This document shows positions 23,603 to 32,000 of a stretch of 32,000 bases of DNA, in pieces; within the stretch, counting starts at the first letter, position 1; every line of letters starts with the position of its first letter. The stretch lies in NCBI GenBank assembly GCA_048938295.1, contig JBHLMI010000011.1:30001-62000 (forward strand), written 5' to 3'. The position numbers and the translations under genes were made by a program. The DNA comes from Promethearchaeota archaeon. GTDB lineage: Archaea > Asgardarchaeota > Hermodarchaeia > Hermodarchaeales > Hermodarchaeaceae. The notes below the pieces were generated by a model that saw only the letters and a program-made list of their open reading frames with translations, did not search any database and was not told the DNA's origin.

Positions 23603-24349
23603 TTATTCGAACAGGGTGGTGTCCAGGCTTGCTTTTAATTCGCTAATTATCTCTTTTACAGTGGCTTCCCGCAGATTCAACACTTCAGAAATACGTCTTA
23701 TGCTGTCGTCATGGGAATCAATGGCATGGTGCAAGACGCGGCGGGCATCGGGGCTATCAATTTGCTGCACCATCTTGCGGGTTTCTTTCATCACGCTGTT
23801 TCGAATGTAAAGGAGAACCAGTTTTTCTTCTTCGAGGTAATCGAGGTGTTCATCTATATCTGTTAGAATCTCTGCTAAGTGATCGATTTTCCTCTCTTCT
23901 TTAGGATATTTGAAAAGTTCCTTCACTCGATTCAGGAAGGCTGCTGCCTTTTCAGAAAGGGTTTCTTGGTCTGGCTCTACATCAAAGGCTATTACTTTCT
24001 CTTTGAAGAGATGTGGACCGATGTTCACCATGATAGCGAGGCTCTTGTTTAAGAAGTAGATTCGCCGTTTGGGTCCTTGAGGGCTTGTTTCTTTAGCAGA
24101 CTCAACGAGCTGTGCCTTTTCCATGATTTTAAGATGTTTGGCGACAAGTTGTTGACTTAAATTGAGGTCTTTGGCAAGCTGGAGAGGGTAATTGGGTTCT
24201 TGGCTTAAACGTTGGATAACTAGTCGGCGAATGGGGCTGTCTAAAATTCGCAAAATTGAATCGAGCTCGGTATCGCGTCTCGGTTTGACTCCAGTTTCCT
24301 TTCCTTTTTTGGAAGTTGATACAATCTTTTTTTTGCTCTTACTATTCAT
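23603..24349 (-). CDS. ArsR-type winged-HTH heat-shock repressor (Phr/HSR1-like)
   Basis: ILDSPIRR...LSQEPNYPLQLA..L...VAKHL..ME and GPKRRIY motifs, with a C-terminal coiled region. Adjacent to hsp20. Confidence 0.8.
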   Translation of the reverse strand: MNSKSKKKIVSTSKKGKETGVKPRRDTELDSILRILDSPIRRLVIQRLSQEPNYPLQLAKDLNLSQQLVAKHLKIMEKAQLVESAKETSPQGPKRRIYFLNKSLAIMVNIGPHLFKEKVIAFDVEPDQETLSEKAAAFLNRVKELFKYPKEERKIDHLAEILTDIDEHLDYLEEEKLVLLYIRNSVMKETRKMVQQIDSPDARRVLHHAIDSHDDSIRRISEVLNLREATVKEIISELKASLDTTLFE

Positions 24350-24445: not shown

Positions 24446-26140
24446 TCACGCTGTAACAACCTCAATTTTGAGTTTGGGTTTACTAATCACTTCACGTTGT
24501 TCTTTGAGGATGTTTCGGGCAATGTCTAAGGCTGTTTCATCATCGTAGACGCCTTGAGCGTTTTTCCGTGCTTCTTGGAGCATCTGACGCTGCACCTTGA
24601 GTTTCAAATCCCCAATGGTCAACGCACCAATACCATAGTTTTCAGGAATTAGCTCACGAAAATCATCTGTAGGAGTTAGAGATTCGATTCCACTTGGAGG
24701 TACAGCATTTACATCCAATAGAATTTTTGTCCCTAAAACAGATTGCAGCTGTTCGAGTGATACTAATTGAATACCCGGAGAGCCAACAGCGAAAATAAGG
24801 TTAGCATCCTCTAGAAGTTCATGAAGGTCATCAGGTGAAGTTGATTGCACGCCTTCCACTTTATTACTCTCGATTGAGGCCCGGTGCGCTACTTCTCTGG
24901 CCCGGTCAATATTTCGTGAGGTTAATACTGTCAGCGCTCCACTCTTGGAAAGTAAATGAGCCACACTTTCTCCAACTGGTCCTGTACCTGCAAGAACTAA
25001 CGCAATGTTACTTTTGAGTGAACCTTGGTTAAGTCTGCGCAGAGCTTCCTCAGCTTTGGCAACCATAGCCGCCGCCGTGGAAAATGCACCGTGTGGATCA
25101 ATAATTACTGCCGTTTCGAAAGGTTTCACCATGGCCTTTTGAATTCTGTCTGCCATTTGACGAGCAAGGGAAACCTGACGTCCTCCAACAAAGAAGCAAA
25201 GATGCTTTACTCCCTTGGTTCCCCTTGAAAAGATAGCATCTTGGACTAAGTCTTGAATCCGATCAAGCGACACTCCAGAATATGGAACTACAACATCAAA
25301 TCCTGCGTCGTACGCTACACAGATATCAAACGGGCTAGCGTGGTCATCCGCTTCTAGGAAAAAAAGAATGTCACTTAGTTTTGTTTTTGGGCGCTTAATC
25401 ACTGGCACAACAGAAACCGAAGAAACTCCTGTGAGCTCCGTCATGCCTTTCATTTCCTCTTTTGGCACTTCTGAAAGAATTCGTTTGAAGCTTATAGGGA
25501 CCACATCTACCTCCAAGGATTGCAAAAGTTCCATTAAACCTTGGAAATGTCTGGGGCTGCTCAAGTGAAACGTGGTTATTCGCTTCTTCTTAAGAAGTTC
25601 AGCTTGTTGTAAAATCCCCATAGTAATCCAGCTTTCACGGATTCCAAATTGTACTTGTCTAATTTCCTCTTCAAGTTCATCGTGCAAGTACTGACCATAG
25701 GCGACAAGCCGATCTATTTTGTCTTGCACACTTGGAGTTATTTTTTCATCTGATAGGATTCTTAACCCGTCTAAGACCTCATTGCGCTTTTCCAGTTTCA
25801 ACTTGATACTCCGTGAGAGGTATGAGTGAGCGAACTCGTCCATTTCAACCGCATAAAAAGGGATCTTTAATTTTGAGAATACATCCGCTACTGGGTTGTC
25901 TTCACGGAATTCCTTCAAGCTCCGCAGACCCAATTCATCGGTGGCAAAATCTGGTGACTCTGATTCAGCAATCTGCTTGATCATATCGCAATAAGCCATT
26001 GAAGGGCGTTTTATTGCAGAAATCTTCGATTCAGATTCAGAAGGAGGGGAATGAATGAGCCAAGGTTCGTCATAGGCCTTTCTAATTAGGAAGACCCGCA
26101 ATTTTTTCCCACTTAAAGGGGCAAGCTCTAACGTTTTCAA
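24446..26140 (-). CDS. mtd: NAD(P)-dependent methylene-H4MPT/H4F dehydrogenase (MtdA/MtdB-type) fused to an N-terminal ~220 aa domain
   Basis: The C-terminal ~310 aa carry SPFDICVAYDAG, QDAIFSRG, TAAAMVAK, LAGTGPVG, DVNAVPP.GI and GIGALTIGDLK. SD AGGTGA precedes the TTG start. Confidence 0.85.
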   Translation of the reverse strand: MKTLELAPLSGKKLRVFLIRKAYDEPWLIHSPPSESESKISAIKRPSMAYCDMIKQIAESESPDFATDELGLRSLKEFREDNPVADVFSKLKIPFYAVEMDEFAHSYLSRSIKLKLEKRNEVLDGLRILSDEKITPSVQDKIDRLVAYGQYLHDELEEEIRQVQFGIRESWITMGILQQAELLKKKRITTFHLSSPRHFQGLMELLQSLEVDVVPISFKRILSEVPKEEMKGMTELTGVSSVSVVPVIKRPKTKLSDILFFLEADDHASPFDICVAYDAGFDVVVPYSGVSLDRIQDLVQDAIFSRGTKGVKHLCFFVGGRQVSLARQMADRIQKAMVKPFETAVIIDPHGAFSTAAAMVAKAEEALRRLNQGSLKSNIALVLAGTGPVGESVAHLLSKSGALTVLTSRNIDRAREVAHRASIESNKVEGVQSTSPDDLHELLEDANLIFAVGSPGIQLVSLEQLQSVLGTKILLDVNAVPPSGIESLTPTDDFRELIPENYGIGALTIGDLKLKVQRQMLQEARKNAQGVYDDETALDIARNILKEQREVISKPKLKIEVVTA

Positions 26141-26296
26141 TTAATCACCTGCCTATATTAGGCAGTTAAGGCTTCTTCCCATCTGAGAAAAAGGCGATGA
26201 AAATTTATTTTAGATGAAAAAAGACAATTTTTATAGTCAAGCTCGTTGCCCAAGGCAAATTGTGAACTAGATCGGGGCAGATATCTTAAGTTCAAA

Positions 26297-27640
26297 TCAT
26301 GTTTTTCGTTCTCCAGCTTCTCTAAATCTATAATCTGTATGAGCTGCACAAGAAACGCAGGGATCAAAACATCGAACAGCCATCATAGCCCGTTCAAGGA
26401 TTTTTTCATTTGGCCAACCAAGATTTATGCAAGCACTCATGACGTTTTGTACAATCACCGCTATCGCACGGGCATTAAGCTCTGTTGGCACTCGAATGTC
26501 GATATCTTTGATTCTGTTGCTACTATTTGTACTTACTCGGTAAAGGAGAATTCCCCGTGGAGCTTCAACTGCACTAGCTCCGATTCTAGTTCCTGGTGTC
26601 AACCCAATTGAAGAGTCTTCATCTTTCGACCATTCTGTTTCCAACAGGTTGATTGCATTTGTGAGAGCGAATTCCATTTCGTCAATTCGAAGAAGCCCGG
26701 TTTGGAACAGGTTAGGCACTCCTATGTACGATTTCTTACTTTTCGTTGGCTTAGACTGAAGTACAGCTAGTCGGGCATAAGGCCCCGCTAAGAGATTCTT
26801 GGATTCGTCGTTTGATTTGATGTAGACAACTTTTGTGGGGGCATCTAACAGGTCCTGCTCCACTAAGTATTCAGAGAAATCATCACAGGCAACGGTTTCA
26901 TGTGTTCCATCATCAGAAATGAAATGGACCTGATTAAGACCAGAAAACCGGTTGGCCTTTGTTTCAAAGGAGCTAATATAAAGTGGAAGAGGAAGTGCAT
27001 AGTGTTGGATTTCCTCTTCGATTTCATCTAGTAGCGAATTGTAGTATTCTTTAGTCCATTTCACTCCCGAGAGCGTTGAAGAAAGTTGTTGGATAAGATC
27101 TTGCTGTTGAGTGCTATTGATGTTTTGAACGACTCCACCTGGAATCAGGTTAAAGGCTAAATTAGTATTACCTGCTGTTGCGGTGATTAACGCTTCTGCA
27201 CACTCGTATAATTTTGTAGCAATTGGTAGAACTCGTGGTTGCATGCGATCAATGCCAAGGATGTCTTGTCGAGAGATTTGGTTTGTAAGATACATCAAAT
27301 CAGCCAAAGTAGAAAAGAACACACTATATGTGTGCGATCGGATGATTTCTCCCAAGAGCGCCAGTTCGCGGATTAACTCGGCAATTGGGGGAATTGATAC
27401 ATCTGTAGTCGATTCAATTGCTTTTATTGCTCCTATTCTATGGGCAACTGGACAAATTCCACAGATCCGCGGAACAATTTTTGGTAAGTCATTAATGTGT
27501 TGTCCAATTAGAACGTTCAAAAAGTCCCGTGCCGTTGGCATGTTATATACAACATTTGTTATGCGATCTTTGTCTCGCGTTACAATGAGCTTGCTTTCGC
27601 CTTCTATCCGTGTCATTGGTAAGGATAGTCGAATTTTCAT
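26297..27640 (-). CDS. mvhA: Group 3 [NiFe]-hydrogenase large subunit (MvhA-like)
   Basis: L1 RICGICPVAH, L2 DPCVSCAAH plus a 13 aa cleavable extension, EAPRG and VPT..N. ATGA overlap with the small-subunit gene. Confidence 0.88.
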   Translation of the reverse strand: MKIRLSLPMTRIEGESKLIVTRDKDRITNVVYNMPTARDFLNVLIGQHINDLPKIVPRICGICPVAHRIGAIKAIESTTDVSIPPIAELIRELALLGEIIRSHTYSVFFSTLADLMYLTNQISRQDILGIDRMQPRVLPIATKLYECAEALITATAGNTNLAFNLIPGGVVQNINSTQQQDLIQQLSSTLSGVKWTKEYYNSLLDEIEEEIQHYALPLPLYISSFETKANRFSGLNQVHFISDDGTHETVACDDFSEYLVEQDLLDAPTKVVYIKSNDESKNLLAGPYARLAVLQSKPTKSKKSYIGVPNLFQTGLLRIDEMEFALTNAINLLETEWSKDEDSSIGLTPGTRIGASAVEAPRGILLYRVSTNSSNRIKDIDIRVPTELNARAIAVIVQNVMSACINLGWPNEKILERAMMAVRCFDPCVSCAAHTDYRFREAGERKT

Positions 27641-28371
27641 TGTTTAAACTTCAGCTCCGGTTTTTGATATCTAAAAGCGAGAGCCGCATACTTACGAATG
27701 GCGTCGCTGACTTTTATGAGAGAGAAGAAATTAGCGAGAGTCGAGGGTAGATTCCGGTCTATGGCACCCATACAGCCATCACAGGGAGTGGCTCCCTTAA
27801 TACAAAGGGCTTCACACCCTGCACGGGTTATTGGGCCTAAACAGAGTATTCCCTCGCGTAAAAAACAGCTTTGGGGAGGGCGTACGTTATGTAAGGACGT
27901 TATCTCAACATCAAATGCTTGATCTTGGGCAAACGGGCATTCTCCACACACGTTTTTGTCAGGGAGTTCGATTTCAGAACCATCAATTGCGCTCATCAAC
28001 AGATTTCCAAGTAACTTTCGTGGTGGCGGACAGCCAGGTAATGACATGTATAAGTCAACGAATTTACTGATGGGATCTATACGCATGTTGGGGGATTGGC
28101 TCATTATTCCACCGAGAACGGCACAGCTTCCCAAAGCGATGATTTTGGTTCCTGCGGTCCATAGTCTTCGAAGAAGTTCCGCGTCTTCATCTCGAGTGAC
28201 TCCACCTTCTACAAATGCGATATCTAAATCCGTGTCAACTTGAACATCAGAGATTAATCGAAACACACGAATATCAACTGATTTAAGGAGTTCAGGGAAT
28301 AGGGCGCTACCAAGTATGGCAAACATACACCCGCTACAGGAGTTTAGTTGAAGAAAACCAATCTTAGTCAT
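27637..28371 (-). CDS. mvhG: Group 3 [NiFe]-hydrogenase small subunit (MvhG/HydD-like)
   Basis: SCSGC, VEGG, GSC, PGCPP, VCGECP and CLGPITRAGCEALC...PCDGCMG. TAATG overlap with the upstream gene. Confidence 0.88.
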   Translation of the reverse strand: MTKIGFLQLNSCSGCMFAILGSALFPELLKSVDIRVFRLISDVQVDTDLDIAFVEGGVTRDEDAELLRRLWTAGTKIIALGSCAVLGGIMSQSPNMRIDPISKFVDLYMSLPGCPPPRKLLGNLLMSAIDGSEIELPDKNVCGECPFAQDQAFDVEITSLHNVRPPQSCFLREGILCLGPITRAGCEALCIKGATPCDGCMGAIDRNLPSTLANFFSLIKVSDAIRKYAALAFRYQKPELKFKQ

Positions 28372-30899
28372 TAGCCTAATAGCTCCTCTAATTCAGTGGA
28401 AAATTGATTGACCTGGTTCGCGAACACGTGACCTTCAACGGCTGACACATTCAATACGCGTACACGTTTTTGTAGTTCGTCTCCATAAAAATCTGCGAGA
28501 ACACCAATTCGTGTCTGAGCCTTCTTGATACCCTCAAAGAACCGGCAAGCTGTTTCATGACAGCCAACAACCATAACACCATCAAATCCGTGGTTTAACG
28601 CTGTTATTACATAATTTGCATCGATTGAACCCGCGCATGGCAGTCTAATGACCATTGCACCAGGATCATAGTCCAGTCGACGAATGCCTGCATTATCCAC
28701 TGCCGGGTATCCACATGAGTTGCAGGAAAACACAATTATTCGGGGGGAGGCTGTGCTCATTGAGAGGGCATTCATTGCAGCTTGAACCTCCTCCTGAATT
28801 GGAGGGGAAGCCAGAGCTCCGGTTGGGCATATTGCGATGCAGGCTCCACAGCCTTCACATTTTAGCGTATCGATACGAAGTGTGTCAGCTATGATGGCGA
28901 GAGCGTTAAAGGGACAGGACTCTACACAGAGATTACAAAGCCCACATTTTTCTTGATTAATTTGAATTGGTATGTCCCCTGCAGGGAGGCTATCTTTTCC
29001 TAATAGAAGAAGAACTTCTAATGCGGTATCTCGAGAATCTGCTACTAAGTCGGCATAAGCTTTAGGACCAGTTATAGACCCACAAGCCCAAATACCTGAG
29101 GATAAGCTCTTTGGGTCAATGAAACCTCGTCTATCCAAGGAAAAATTCGTCATACTACGAAGGGTTAGCTGTTGGTCTCCTGGCGTCATACCCATATTGA
29201 GAACAATAAGATCTGCTGGGAATGAATTTGAATCAGTTTGGATTAAGCGTTTATGCCCCCGATGAATGATCTTAATGCTTTCACAAAAGTGAATATGAGA
29301 ATATTCTGGGATGAAGGTGCTTCGATCAGGGGGAATTAAGGCTATCTGGTAAAGGACATTGATGGAAGTATTGGGCGCCTTTTTTTCTACAATCTCTAGG
29401 TATTTGAGCGCGAGGTTACAGCAGTAGTTTGAACAAGCCTTGGTTCGGTTCTGACATTGAAGAACAATTATGGAACGGGCAGGTTGGCCGGTTGTTGGGC
29501 AGATTATATTGCCTCCTGTTGGTCCATCAGGCGCTAGCATACGTTCAAATTCGGATGAAGTGATAATATCCTTAGCAGGGTTATATTGAATTGCTCCTTG
29601 AGATGGCAAGGTTTTAGGATCGCATACTTCTGCGCCTGTTGCAAGAATTATGGCACCAACCGTGAACTTCTTGGTTACAGGTTCTTGATCAAGATTAATC
29701 GCTTTAGATGGGCATGCTTTTTCGCATTTTCGGCATGTCCGGCAAAAATCAATATCCTCCTGTTCAATGACGGGTCTACTAGGATATGCGGCAGGGCAAG
29801 GCACATGGATGAGTTTACGTTGGCTAATATGGTACTCAAATGCATCTGGACGAGACTCAGGACACGTATCGACACAAGAGCCGCACATTATGCATTTTGA
29901 TAAATCGACATATCGGGGCTGTTGCAGAGCAGTAATCTCATAATTGCCAATTGTTCCTGAAATATCGGAGAGTTCGGTATTAGTAAGAATTCGTATGTTC
30001 CCTGAAAGCATAACTGAGGATACATCCTCAGCAATCATACATGGACCACAATCGATAGCCCCATAGATGCTTTCCCATCGCCGCGCGATTCCACCTAGAC
30101 ATGACTCTTTCTCTAGCAGAATAATGGAATAGTTGGATTGAGCCAAAACCTTGGCAACCTCTACTCCAGCTAGTCCACCACCAATGATGGCGGCACTTTT
30201 CCGAATTGGTAACGTACGCTTTGGAATTGAGACCCGATGCCGGAGCATCTCAGCGCTGGCCCGTATTAGAAGTAACGCTTTTTCTGTGGCTTGCTCGGGT
30301 TTATTTCTATGAACCCAAGCACAATGTTCACGTATGTTCGCGAATTCAATGGGTATATCCAATTGCATTCGAATAGCGGTAAACATTTGGCTGTGAAGGT
30401 GAGGGGAGCAGGCTGCAATTACAAGATTATTCAGAAAATACCGATCACACCATGCTTTTAGTTTCTCAACGTTTTCTAACAAACATAAATGCTGAAACAC
30501 CATTGTACGTTCAACATATGGCAGATCATTGACTTTCTCCATAAGCTCCCCGACATTAATGGCTTGATGAATTTCCTCCCCACAAGAACAGACAATTACG
30601 CCAATACGGAAAATTGCTCCTCGTGAATCCGCTTCGCTCAGATCGATTGCCTCTCCGGCCATCAATTGTTCCTTGGCGGTCATTAGGCGGATTGCATTTG
30701 TTCCTGCGGCGGAAAGTTGATAGAAGCCATTCCGTTTCTCTATGAACCCCTCCAGTTTTTTGAGATGATAATTGAAGAGACCTGTTTTCGTGAGCCCTAA
30801 TCTTTTCATCAAATCATTATAGGTGATTAGTCGTTCAGCGTCTAATATTCGAAGAATTTGTTCGCGGAGTGGATGGGCCAAAGCCGCATATACATTCAT
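28371..30899 (-). CDS. hdrA: Winged-HTH - HdrA - MvhD fusion protein
   Basis: Residues 1-75 are wHTH-like (HPLREQILRIL...FNYHLKKL...YQLS..G). HdrA motifs follow: CSCG, AACSP, NIREHCAWVH, GGGLAG, DCGPC, two ferredoxin pairs, EFERML and CSNYCC...K. The C-terminus is MvhD-like (CNSCGY, RLPCAG, GCH...CRF). Confidence 0.9.
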   Translation of the reverse strand: MNVYAALAHPLREQILRILDAERLITYNDLMKRLGLTKTGLFNYHLKKLEGFIEKRNGFYQLSAAGTNAIRLMTAKEQLMAGEAIDLSEADSRGAIFRIGVIVCSCGEEIHQAINVGELMEKVNDLPYVERTMVFQHLCLLENVEKLKAWCDRYFLNNLVIAACSPHLHSQMFTAIRMQLDIPIEFANIREHCAWVHRNKPEQATEKALLLIRASAEMLRHRVSIPKRTLPIRKSAAIIGGGLAGVEVAKVLAQSNYSIILLEKESCLGGIARRWESIYGAIDCGPCMIAEDVSSVMLSGNIRILTNTELSDISGTIGNYEITALQQPRYVDLSKCIMCGSCVDTCPESRPDAFEYHISQRKLIHVPCPAAYPSRPVIEQEDIDFCRTCRKCEKACPSKAINLDQEPVTKKFTVGAIILATGAEVCDPKTLPSQGAIQYNPAKDIITSSEFERMLAPDGPTGGNIICPTTGQPARSIIVLQCQNRTKACSNYCCNLALKYLEIVEKKAPNTSINVLYQIALIPPDRSTFIPEYSHIHFCESIKIIHRGHKRLIQTDSNSFPADLIVLNMGMTPGDQQLTLRSMTNFSLDRRGFIDPKSLSSGIWACGSITGPKAYADLVADSRDTALEVLLLLGKDSLPAGDIPIQINQEKCGLCNLCVESCPFNALAIIADTLRIDTLKCEGCGACIAICPTGALASPPIQEEVQAAMNALSMSTASPRIIVFSCNSCGYPAVDNAGIRRLDYDPGAMVIRLPCAGSIDANYVITALNHGFDGVMVVGCHETACRFFEGIKKAQTRIGVLADFYGDELQKRVRVLNVSAVEGHVFANQVNQFSTELEELLG

Positions 30900-30973
30900 C
30901 TTGGGGTCCTTCTCGTGATTTCTGTGGAGAAATACCTTAGATAACTCTAATTGTCAAGAAACATAACTTAGAC

Positions 30974-31004
30974 AAAAAAGCTTGCCCTGTTTAAAAAGGC
31001 AAGC
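30974..31004 (-). terminator. Stem-loop plus T6 run (terminator of the zinc-finger gene, or an operator flanking the hdrA TATA box)
   Basis: Minus strand GCTTGCC-N11-GGCAAGC-TTTTTT. The loop contains TTTTTAAA. Confidence 0.45.
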
Positions 31005-31041
31005 AATGGCTGCAACTATTCTTGCTACTTCTGATGAGAAA

Positions 31042-31272
31042 TTACATCTTTTTACTCTCAGAAGTAGGAATGGGAGCACGATAGCGCGTTTGATAGCAAT
31101 TGCGGCAAATGTAGCGAGGCATAACGTTAAGCGCACCACACCATGGGCATTTCCAAAAATCGATCGTTGTTAGTGTCACATCGGCCTCACGTCGGATATA
31201 ACGACAATGCTGGCATAAACGTAAATGAATAAAATTTGATACTCCACATTTCGGACACGTCCAATACTTCAA
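31042..31272 (-). CDS. Small protein with two RanBP2/NZF-type zinc fingers
   Basis: WTCPKCGVSNFIHLRLCQHC and WKCPWCGALNVMPRYICRNC both fit W-x-C-x2-C-x3-N-x6-C-x2-C exactly. Likely start is TTG 31272 after GGGGTG; the ORF is open to 31287. Confidence 0.82.
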   Translation of the reverse strand: MKYWTCPKCGVSNFIHLRLCQHCRYIRREADVTLTTIDFWKCPWCGALNVMPRYICRNCYQTRYRAPIPTSESKKM

Positions 31273-31580
31273 ATTCCACCACCCCACGAGGATCTCTTAT
31301 TGCTACTTTCTCATTAAATCTCCTAAGTTGTGCTATAGGATGCGCGGGTTTCATAGCGACTCTATATTGATTTCAGCCGAATCTTCACATCCTAGCATAT
31401 AGTAGGAGGGAACGAAAAAACAAAAACACTCTGAAAAACATCATTTCCAAAGTGTGACAAATAATTTTATCTTGAGCTTGTTGTCAATCTTGACAAACGC
31501 TTTCCAAATATCAGCAGAAACGCGATTCTGTGATGGTTTTTCGTAGTATTATGAAAATTAAGCTTTCATAGTGTTAGACT

Positions 31581-31907
31581 TCATTTTATTTGTTCAAGTT
31601 TCTCTAGCATTTGTTGGCGATATCGTTCTAAAGCGGTTTTCCCCTCATCAGAGAGTTGGATGAGCGTGTGGGGAATTTTATCAACGAATTCTTTGGTGAT
31701 CCTAACATAGCCGACGGTTTCCAGTTTGCTGAGATGAGAAGAGAGATTACCGCGCGTGAGGCCCGTGCGGCGTAAGATGAACAGGAAATCTGCACTCTCG
31801 ACTTCTTTGAGAATGGTGAGGATTTTCAGACGTGCTGGCGAATGGACAATAGGATCAACATCCTCATCCTCGATGGAAGAGAATGGGGGGGAGTTAGAGG
31901 AGGGCAT
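31581..31907 (-). CDS. Winged-HTH transcriptional regulator (MarR-like/HTH_34-type)
   Basis: DPIVHSPARL.IL..L, TGLTRGNLSSHLSKLE..GYV and LS.EG motifs. SD AGGTGA precedes ATG 31907. Confidence 0.88.
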   Translation of the reverse strand: MPSSNSPPFSSIEDEDVDPIVHSPARLKILTILKEVESADFLFILRRTGLTRGNLSSHLSKLETVGYVRITKEFVDKIPHTLIQLSDEGKTALERYRQQMLEKLEQIK

Positions 31908-32000
31908 GGGGCGTCTCACCTTCAATGGACTCGGTGTGTTCGACTGGATAGTGGTGCAGGAATCGGAGAAACAGGATAGTGCCGAATAAGAGAGCGAGGA
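31894..32000 (-). CDS. C-terminal fragment of a probable membrane protein, truncated by the window edge
   Basis: Open frame LALLFGTILFLRFLHHYPVEHTESIEGETPHALL-stop, overlapping the start of the regulator gene. Confidence 0.5.
   Translation of the reverse strand, partial: LALLFGTILFLRFLHHYPVEHTESIEGETPHALL

Follow-up and report, generated by a model that had tools for sequence, protein, structure and literature searches.

The window analysed here, by which we mean the whole stretch of 32,000 nucleotides (nt) at positions 30,001 to 62,000 of contig JBHLMI010000011.1 (assembly GCA_048938295.1, a Promethearchaeota archaeon of the Hermodarchaeaceae), carries on its minus strand what we predict to be a group-3c-type [NiFe] hydrogenase operon in the order hdrA-mvhD, mvhG, mvhA. 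The first gene of this putative operon encodes a fusion protein in which a winged helix-turn-helix (wHTH) domain of the ArsR type precedes an HdrA-type flavoprotein and an MvhD domain. Its open reading frame (ORF) begins with ATG and runs through 842 codons without an internal stop, as expected from the initial annotation, which had described an uninterrupted in-frame fusion, and the start of mvhG overlaps its stop codon. The features of the locus, together with three candidate operators, are collected in Table 1.

Table 1. Coordinates of the wHTH-HdrA-MvhD gene, its domains, the candidate operators and the neighbouring genes within the window (aa, amino acids).
Feature	Position	Strand	Length or residues	Evidence and remarks
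wHTH-HdrA-MvhD gene (P0001)	28371..30899	-	842 aa	ORF list, translation, Pfam/NCBIfam; 62 full-length orthologues, 37-80% identity
ArsR-like winged-helix domain	30660..30899	-	residues 1-80	
Linker, variable and flexible	30609..30659	-	residues 81-97	
HdrA part	28773..30608	-	residues 98-709	aligns to 8RVU/5ODC HdrA; NCBIfam HdrA2
MvhD (FlpD) domain	28380..28739	-	residues 721-840	PF02662, 5ODC chain D
Candidate operator 1	30939..30956	.		TGACAA-N6-TTATCT, 11/12 specified positions
Candidate operator 2	31455..31472	.		AGATAA-N6-TTGTCA, 11/12; 168 nt upstream of zinc-ribbon gene
Candidate operator 3, weaker	26222..26239	.		TGACTA-N6-TTGTCT, 10/12; between mvhA and MtdA-fusion gene
MvhG-like [NiFe] hydrogenase small subunit	27637..28371	-	244 aa	Oxidored_q6; VhuG E 4e-35
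MvhA-like [NiFe] hydrogenase large subunit	26297..27640	-	447 aa	NiFeSe_Hases; VhuA E 1e-33
MtdA-fusion gene	24446..26140	-	564 aa	N-domain 1-257, MtdA-like dehydrogenase 258-544; Mpt_N
Double zinc-ribbon gene	31042..31287	-	81 aa	between operators 1 and 2; conserved within genus only
Flanking wHTH gene, ArsR HTH_5	23603-24349	-	248 aa	
Flanking wHTH gene, HTH_34	31581-32000, runs on to 32048 (C66:62048)	-	~155 aa	

Architecture and origin of the fusion protein

The N-terminal domain of the fusion protein matches the Pfam family DUF7347 (PF24038) over residues 3-71 with an E value of 1.5e-13 (51.2 bits against a cut-off of 27.6), and it gives weak matches under the cut-offs to HTH_20 (24.1 bits against 27) and HTH_24. 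A profile built from 31 orthologous N-domains matched the solved ArsR-like repressor 1Y0U of Archaeoglobus fulgidus (E 6e-7) and PagR (E 0.0035). In AlphaFold models, with a mean predicted local distance difference test (pLDDT) score of 87 for the full-length protein and 86 for the isolated domain, DSSP assigns a helix-helix-helix-wing-helix topology comprising helices at residues 10-22, 27-34 and 39-48, the last of these being the recognition helix, a wing hairpin at residues 53-62, and a C-terminal helix at residues 64-80. When the isolated domain was compared to the PDB using Foldseek, almost all of the top matches listed were wHTH regulators of the ArsR/SmtB or MarR type, including 3F6O, 1Y0U, CadC (1U2W), DNA-bound NolR (4OMY), SrnR, BigR, SqrR, and YodB, at probability 1.0 and template-modelling scores of 0.5-0.69; the E values were just 1e-3 to 1e-2, weak because the domain is short (80 residues). 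By hidden Markov model, PDB profile search and predicted fold, the N-domain is thus an ArsR-type wHTH, and the initial annotation was right about its class. The bounds that it gave, residues 1-75 followed by a linker of ~20 residues, are shifted by the C-terminal helix, which extends the domain to residue 80 and leaves residues 81-97 as the linker, with pLDDT below 50 at residues 87-94.

The pattern of conservation in this domain is that of a region under purifying selection, as judged from the orthologous sequences. Across the 62 orthologues, R12, T39, G40, N43, H45, L46, Y60, L62, and G66 are invariant and concentrated on the recognition helix, TGxxN(Y/F)HLKKL. The wHTH is no less conserved than the catalytic parts: its identity is 0.84 to near, 0.66 to middle and 0.39 to far orthologues, compared to 0.71, 0.52 and 0.36, respectively, for the flavin adenine dinucleotide (FAD) domain, and identity of the linker to distant orthologues is 0.25, compared to 0.36-0.45 for the domains. 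The mean net charge of the wHTH is +4.1, compared to +0.8 for the whole protein. Residues 1-97 contain no cysteine, and we found no metal-sensing or thiol-sensing site in the wHTH. A complex prediction with two copies of the wHTH scored 0.37 against a mark of 0.42 and counts neither for nor against pairing of the domain. An exhaustive search with residues 1-95 returned 558 cluster representatives, mostly archaeal proteins of 90-540 aa with the domain at the N terminus and C-terminal parts that vary (RDD, LiaF-like, or a second wHTH); such diverse C-terminal parts behind a shared N-terminal wHTH are, in terms of domain arrangement, the pattern of one-component regulators.

Residues 98-709 align to the HdrA subunits of the Mvh-Hdr complexes 8RVU and 5ODC (E ~1e-91), and because this alignment begins at chain residue 5-13 of those subunits, residues 1-97 have been added at the N terminus of an HdrA-MvhD fusion. 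The HdrA part consists, in order, of an N-terminal iron-sulfur (Fe-S) domain, a FAD domain with an inserted ferredoxin, and a C-terminal ferredoxin. Full-length alignment to chain a of 8RVU reveals both the FAD-binding GxGxxG motif and the thioredoxin-reductase-like domain of the HdrA family; the FAD motif reads GGGLAG at residues 240-245, and Pfam reports a Pyr_redox_2 match in this part. MvhD begins at about residue 714, with residues 714-840 aligning to chain D of 5ODC in a PDB sequence search (E 1.3e-19) and residues 721-840 matching FlpD/MvhD (PF02662, E 3.8e-32). The NCBIfam model HdrA2 matches residues 98-517 with an E value of 7e-158 and 527 bits, far below its equivalog cut-off of 1100. 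Because the NCBIfam equivalog cut-offs are missed and the locus encodes no HdrB or HdrC, we label the protein by its sequence as an HdrA-family flavoprotein and not as a heterodisulfide reductase.

The cofactor ligands of the HdrA and MvhD parts are largely intact. Residues C104, C106, C139, C164, C284, and C287 and the cysteines of C336-C346, C386-C396, C652-C662, and C681-C691 are 100% conserved, F451-E452-R453 and K499 are invariant across orthologues, and in MvhD, C726, C729, C755, and C785 are invariant and C780 is kept in 95%, which provides the cysteines of its [2Fe-2S] cluster. The initial annotation had listed the FAD motif, the Fe-S cysteine groups, the glutamate of EFER (E452) and the lysine of CC...K (K499) as retained, and all of these are in place. 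For the CS..CC cysteines (C482, C489, C493, and C494), the statement is correct for the window protein but does not extend to the family, as these residues are kept in just 42-55% of the wHTH clade. The CS..CC cysteines (residues 482-494) are kept in the window's own sub-clade and replaced in 45-58% of wHTH-HdrA sequences (the Loki/Thor-type clade); the loss of one Fe-S cluster in the Loki/Thor-type clade is suggested. Two further differences from HdrA had been noted and were seen again in the alignment to 8RVU: DKTFPTLDCSMC of 8RVU is aligned with WESIYGAIDCGPC of the fusion protein, which replaces DKTFP by ESIYG, and the second thioredoxin-reductase-like domain, the second half of the flavin domain, is shortened by a few short deletions (612 query residues compared to 637 chain residues).

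A word-index protein search recovered ~68 protein clusters of 838-885 aa that combine DUF7347, HdrA, and FlpD at 37-80% identity and whose source names include Hod-, Hermod-, Loki-, Thor-, Odin-, and Jordarchaeia. Residues 1-240, which cover the wHTH and the HdrA N-domain, were present in one frame of ~850 codons in 117 of 400 sampled Asgard genomes, and the window's own genus has the fusion in 6 of its 15 genomes. In a maximum-likelihood tree of the HdrA-MvhD part, computed with the wHTH removed and with 17 HdrA(-MvhD) proteins without a wHTH included (many more distant HdrA2-type matches were left out), a 100/100 branch has all 33 wHTH bearers on the same side, so that one gain suffices. The orthologues share a conserved start, MN(V/I)Y or MD(I/L)Y, and no internal Met is conserved immediately ahead of HdrA; at position 80, 39 of the 62 sequences have Leu, 22 have Met, and one has Ile. 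An assembly chimera or a mis-called start as the source of the fusion is therefore ruled out by conservation, the former by an identical junction in the 117 independent genome assemblies and ~68 protein clusters and the latter by the start motif and the lack of an internal Met; this also answers the initial annotation's concern about misassembly. On this comparative evidence, the fusion is genuine, conserved, old, and of single origin.

In public databases these proteins are named just 'hydrogenase iron-sulfur subunit' or 'heterodisulfide reductase subunit A'. The Asgard literature discusses expression of group 3c hydrogenase and Hdr and notes HdrA-HdrA and HdrA-MvhD fusions in these archaea; a helix-turn-helix on HdrA was not found in the full-text literature, in agreement with the earlier statement that no characterised wHTH-HdrA was known.

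A recurring palindrome in the control regions

The regions upstream of the orthologous genes contain a recurring palindrome of 18 base pairs (bp), TGAYAA-N6-TTRTCA. This motif was first spotted by eye, and the controls for spacer length, shuffling, enumeration and genome-wide occurrence came afterwards; the operator statistics refer to 31 non-identical upstream regions of 300 nt, among which related genomes are not independent samples. The perfect site with a spacer of 6 was present in 11 of the 31 regions, compared to 0 for all other spacers from 2 to 10 and 0.01 for dinucleotide shuffles. With at most one mismatch allowed, these numbers were 18 of 31, at most 3, and 0.35, respectively. An unbiased enumeration of 5-mer inverted repeats with spacers of 0-12 ranked GACAA-N6-TTGTC first, and the other high-ranking entries were all homopolymeric. 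The palindrome was found in 7 of the 13 genera and in four families; its sites are frequently clustered at two to four per control region and have spacers that are 83% A+T compared to 69% in the surrounding upstream DNA. At HdrA(-MvhD) loci without a wHTH, which come mostly from other phyla and are higher in G+C, 0 of 74 had a site within 660 nt.

The sites are also confined to this locus within individual genomes. One 3.8-Mb genome (G121) contains a single perfect site, 97 nt upstream of the fusion gene. Another (G377) contains two perfect sites, one of which lies between mvhA and the MtdA-fusion gene, at the position equivalent to that of candidate operator 3. The 2.5-Mb genome from which the window derives has 14 core sites, 12 of them inside ORFs, and the only two that are intergenic are both at this locus. 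Candidate operator 1 spans 40-57 nt upstream of the start codon of the fusion gene and is conserved at -44 to -64 in all six gene-bearing genomes of the genus; candidate operator 2 is conserved in four members of the genus, at -488 to -581, and has extra TTGTCA/TGACAA half-sites just upstream of it; and in candidate operator 3 the sequence formed by the left half-site and the spacer is TATAAAAA. The initial annotation had predicted that paired wHTH domains would bind a palindrome, and a conserved, locus-specific 18-bp palindrome on the putative promoters of the operon is a good candidate for that target.

Two side observations concern the surroundings of these sites. An everted pair of half-sites, TTTGTCA-AGAT-TGACAA, lies just upstream of operator 2 (31473-31500, minus-strand reading), so that the control region holds at least four half-sites. 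In genus g79 (L086-L088), the gene callers add ~42 codons to the fusion gene, and because the extra ATG directly abuts the operator (…TTGTC-ATG), this longer start is probably a mis-call.

Neighbouring genes

The order hdrA-mvhD, mvhG, mvhA was found in 18 of 20 loci fetched by tblastn with the window proteins, the other two being cut or lacking these genes. The MtdA-fusion gene accompanies the operon, lying downstream of it in two families and upstream, in divergent orientation, in three, and together these four genes (hdrA-mvhD, mvhG, mvhA, and the MtdA-fusion gene) are the only genes of the locus conserved across lineages. The second part of the MtdA fusion resembles the MtdA-like NADP-dependent methylene-tetrahydromethanopterin/tetrahydrofolate dehydrogenases and matches 1LU9, 6TGE, and 6TLK (E ~5e-40); its N-domain (257 residues, one Cys) matched no Pfam family even at an E value of 5. 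The two halves are separate genes at loci L121 and L122, and the gene is duplicated at L119. In five congeners without wHTH-HdrA (83-88% complete), the MtdA-fusion gene was not found with the window query, which does not prove that it is absent but suggests from gene content that the module comes and goes as a whole.

The RICGIC and DPCVSC motifs of MvhA are retained in the orthologues, all of which have the four Ni-Fe cysteines. At the family level, the window MvhA matches VhuA and FrhA best, and not group 2. A tail of 13 residues follows its DPCVSCAAH. In family f20 (loci L119-L126), MvhA ends at the His of DPCxSCATH without a C-terminal maturation extension. None of the genes of the locus that served as probes encodes HdrB or HdrC, and Pfam scans of the window's flanking genes detected no CCG protein and no kinase; the CCG/HdrB-like genes of the genome are on six other contigs.

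Neither of the two flanking wHTH genes is conserved at orthologous loci, nor is an HSP20 gene, and the recognition helices of the two flanking wHTH proteins differ from that of the fused wHTH. In this comparison of loci, no DNA-binding domain other than the fused wHTH is conserved. The zinc-ribbon protein has two RanBP/treble-clef-like fingers, and a G+C-rich hairpin with a T run follows its gene at ~30975-31005. In genus g53 (L123:5330-5772; L105, L107, L108, L126), wHTH-HdrA follows an FrhB/FdhB-like gene, and the region between this FrhB-like gene and a divergently oriented HdrA paralogue contains two perfect operators at a distance of 168 nt from each other; the alignment of the paralogue crosses a stop codon, possibly selenocysteine.

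Probable self-regulation by the fusion protein and its alternatives

We consider it likely, from the comparisons described above, that wHTH-HdrA-MvhD is a self-regulating 'trigger enzyme', that is, an enzyme subunit that controls its own operon. The enzyme and the DNA-binding domain are in one polypeptide, and the comparative evidence places a candidate operator in the control region of the gene itself. Because the site is confined to the locus, the fused wHTH is the sole DNA-binding domain conserved there, and the site is missing in relatives without the wHTH, the simplest account is that the operator is bound by the fused wHTH rather than by another protein. The PutA-like trigger enzyme proposed in the initial annotation is thereby partly supported: from the conserved operator, a self-regulating enzyme is the best reading.

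PutA (proline utilisation A) of Escherichia coli and Salmonella is the textbook trigger enzyme. Our working model shares with it a flavoenzyme with a DNA-binding domain at the N terminus of its polypeptide and with operators in its own control region. PutA, however, is a bacterial, membrane-associating protein with a ribbon-helix-helix domain and an experimentally shown flavin-dependent switch, whereas here an ArsR-type wHTH is attached to an archaeal Fe-S flavoprotein of a hydrogenase complex and the switch is proposed only. Compared to MvhAGD-HdrABC of hydrogenotrophic methanogens (5ODC, 8RVU, 7BKB), the HdrA domain order, the cofactor cysteines, MvhD, MvhG, and MvhA are alike; the present system differs in the fusion of MvhD to HdrA, the absence of hdrBC from the locus, the extra N-terminal wHTH, and the change of DKTFP to ESIYG. 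With the ArsR/SmtB repressors (1Y0U, CadC, NolR, BigR, SqrR), the wHTH shares the fold, the HLxxL signature of the recognition helix, a C-terminal helix that follows the wing, and a palindromic target whose centre is rich in A+T, but those proteins are stand-alone repressors of 100 aa, whereas the sensor here would be a redox enzyme of 750 aa.

In the mechanism that we propose, a flexible tether of ~17 residues joins the ArsR-type wHTH to the electron-bifurcation-type flavoprotein HdrA, and a dimer of the protein would pair two wHTH domains on TGAYAA-N6-TTRTCA at sites on or beside the core promoters of its own operon, the zinc-ribbon gene, and the MtdA-fusion gene. A palindromic site demands a dimer. 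The published structures of the complexes contain HdrA in dimeric form, and a further contact between the subunits could come from the ArsR-like C-terminal helix; the geometry of the dimer on the palindrome is what we infer. Binding would most likely repress by occluding TBP/TFB, and because the operator overlaps A+T-rich, TATA-like sequence, repression by promoter occlusion rather than activation is suggested. As the wHTH has no cysteine, any signal must come from the HdrA body through the flexible tether. This signal could be the redox state, set by H2 through MvhAG, or the assembly state, or there could be none; by analogy with PutA only, we would rank redox or H2 gating as the most likely of these. 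Flavin/Fe-S occupancy, either H2-reduced via MvhAG or assembled versus free, would then most likely alter access of the wHTH to DNA, and expression of the H2-handling and one-carbon (C1) module would track the redox or H2 state of the cell. The specific proposal that the hydrogenase/flavoprotein complex is itself a transcription factor, in which the H2-set state of the HdrA flavin and Fe-S clusters releases or engages the ArsR-type domains on the operator, is one that we advance tentatively and with some doubt.

Several observations weigh against self-regulation through the palindrome or against its control by redox state. In six of the 13 genera, no site was seen within 1.6 kb even when one mismatch was allowed. 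No genome-wide regulon is apparent in the window's genome, where the 14 core sites are no excess over other spacer lengths; as the motif lacks genome-wide enrichment and 12 of 14 sites are inside ORFs, any regulon is local only. Because the recognition helix is invariant, no protein-DNA covariation links this wHTH to the site. Another contig of the genome encodes a DUF7347 paralogue of 251 aa (C17:35236-35442, plus strand) with a recognition helix, SGKLNFHLQRL (SGxxNFHL), similar to that of the fused wHTH, and this paralogue is a possible competitor for the same operator. A redox relay would have to cross the disordered linker to a wHTH without cysteine, and no mechanism for this is visible. 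Finally, a wHTH can serve as a pure protein-protein interface, as in BamF of class II benzoyl-CoA reductase (bioRxiv 10.64898/2026.04.10.717634).

This BamF precedent speaks for an alternative in which the wHTH docks HdrA to a partner protein without binding DNA and the palindrome is used by a separately encoded regulator. BamF resembles the present protein as an MvhD-type adaptor in an HdrA-like complex containing a wHTH; its wHTH contacts BamI and no role in DNA binding has been proposed, whereas here the domain is on a flexible N-terminal tether and is accompanied by a conserved operator. A docking role also finds some support in the family itself, as DUF7347 is not mentioned in the literature by that name and has no characterised member, and in the several DUF7347 paralogues per genome, including the one with a similar recognition helix. 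Nevertheless, the nearest relatives of the domain in sequence and fold are DNA-binding ArsR repressors, its net charge is positive and its invariant residues cluster on the recognition helix, and the linker is flexible and poorly conserved, unlike a packed interface. Moreover, the operator accompanies the fusion and is absent from the 74 HdrA loci without a wHTH, and no other regulator gene is conserved at the locus. We therefore regard a purely structural adaptor as improbable.

Two other alternatives accept binding of the operator by the fused wHTH. In one, wHTH-HdrA-MvhD would exert plain negative autoregulation without a redox signal, the operator being bound constitutively or only by the unassembled subunit, which would buffer amount or stoichiometry. 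This possibility shares all of the operator-binding evidence with the trigger-enzyme reading, and the lack of a cysteine or ligand site in the wHTH and the disordered linker, which leave no relay mechanism visible, are in its favour; but the retention of a fusion between a regulator and a redox enzyme across deep Asgard lineages is more easily explained if the state of the enzyme is the signal, an argument by analogy to PutA only, and we think plain autoregulation of this kind rather unlikely. In the other, less likely still, MvhAG-(wHTH)HdrA-MvhD would be a DNA-binding H2 or redox sensor and not a metabolic enzyme, with the MtdA-fusion gene of the C1 pathway as its main target, and would resemble the regulatory hydrogenases HoxBC/HupUV in function, except that its output domain is built in. 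The regulatory [NiFe] hydrogenases are the group 2b enzymes HoxBC/HupUV, which act with HoxJ-HoxA, and a missing C-terminal extension of the large subunit is one of their traits. They share with the present system the coupling of a hydrogenase to transcription control of H2-related genes and, for family f20, an MvhA without this extension. The hydrogenase here, in contrast, is 3c-like, has no histidine kinase or response regulator, and has its output domain fused to HdrA, and the window locus does not fall within group 2b given the tail of MvhA, its affinity to VhuA and FrhA, and the lack of a kinase among the flanking genes. A dedicated sensor would fit with the location of the CCG/HdrB-like genes away from the locus, with the rapid evolution of MvhA (23-28% identity between deep clades compared to 37-40% for HdrA and MvhG, the fastest change among the subunits), with the MvhA of family f20 that lacks an extension, with the loss of the CS..CC cysteines in more than half of the family, and with an apparent regulon that is the locus itself only. 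Against this, the four Ni-Fe cysteines and all Fe-S cysteines other than CS..CC are kept, the window MvhA has its 13-residue tail, the lineage-specific redox partners in the operon (the MtdA fusion or the FrhB-like subunit) fit a working enzyme with exchangeable modules, and a cofactor-rich sensor of four genes would be costly for the control of one target gene. Compared to these alternatives, an enzyme subunit that regulates its own operon remains the reading that we prefer.

The system proposed here belongs in kind to the trigger enzymes; what is new is that an ArsR-type wHTH is combined with an HdrA/hydrogenase complex in archaea. As current protein names ignore the wHTH domain, our results are also a warning for annotators. 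Asgard archaea are the prokaryotes most closely related to eukaryotes, and H2 metabolism has a central place in models of how eukaryotes arose. To our knowledge, almost nothing is known of how these archaea regulate their genes. The present analysis provides a concrete predicted regulator-operator pair, consisting of an 18-bp site and a 97-residue domain, for a hydrogenase/HdrA module and a C1-pathway gene in many Asgard lineages. If redox state gates binding, this would be the first HdrA-type flavoprotein or hydrogenase complex that acts directly as a transcription factor, and the trigger-enzyme concept would be extended to archaeal energy metabolism; we know of no description of such sensing logic for any hydrogenase or electron-bifurcating enzyme. 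Asgard archaea would then possess a one-component H2/redox switch for a module linked to the Wood-Ljungdahl pathway.

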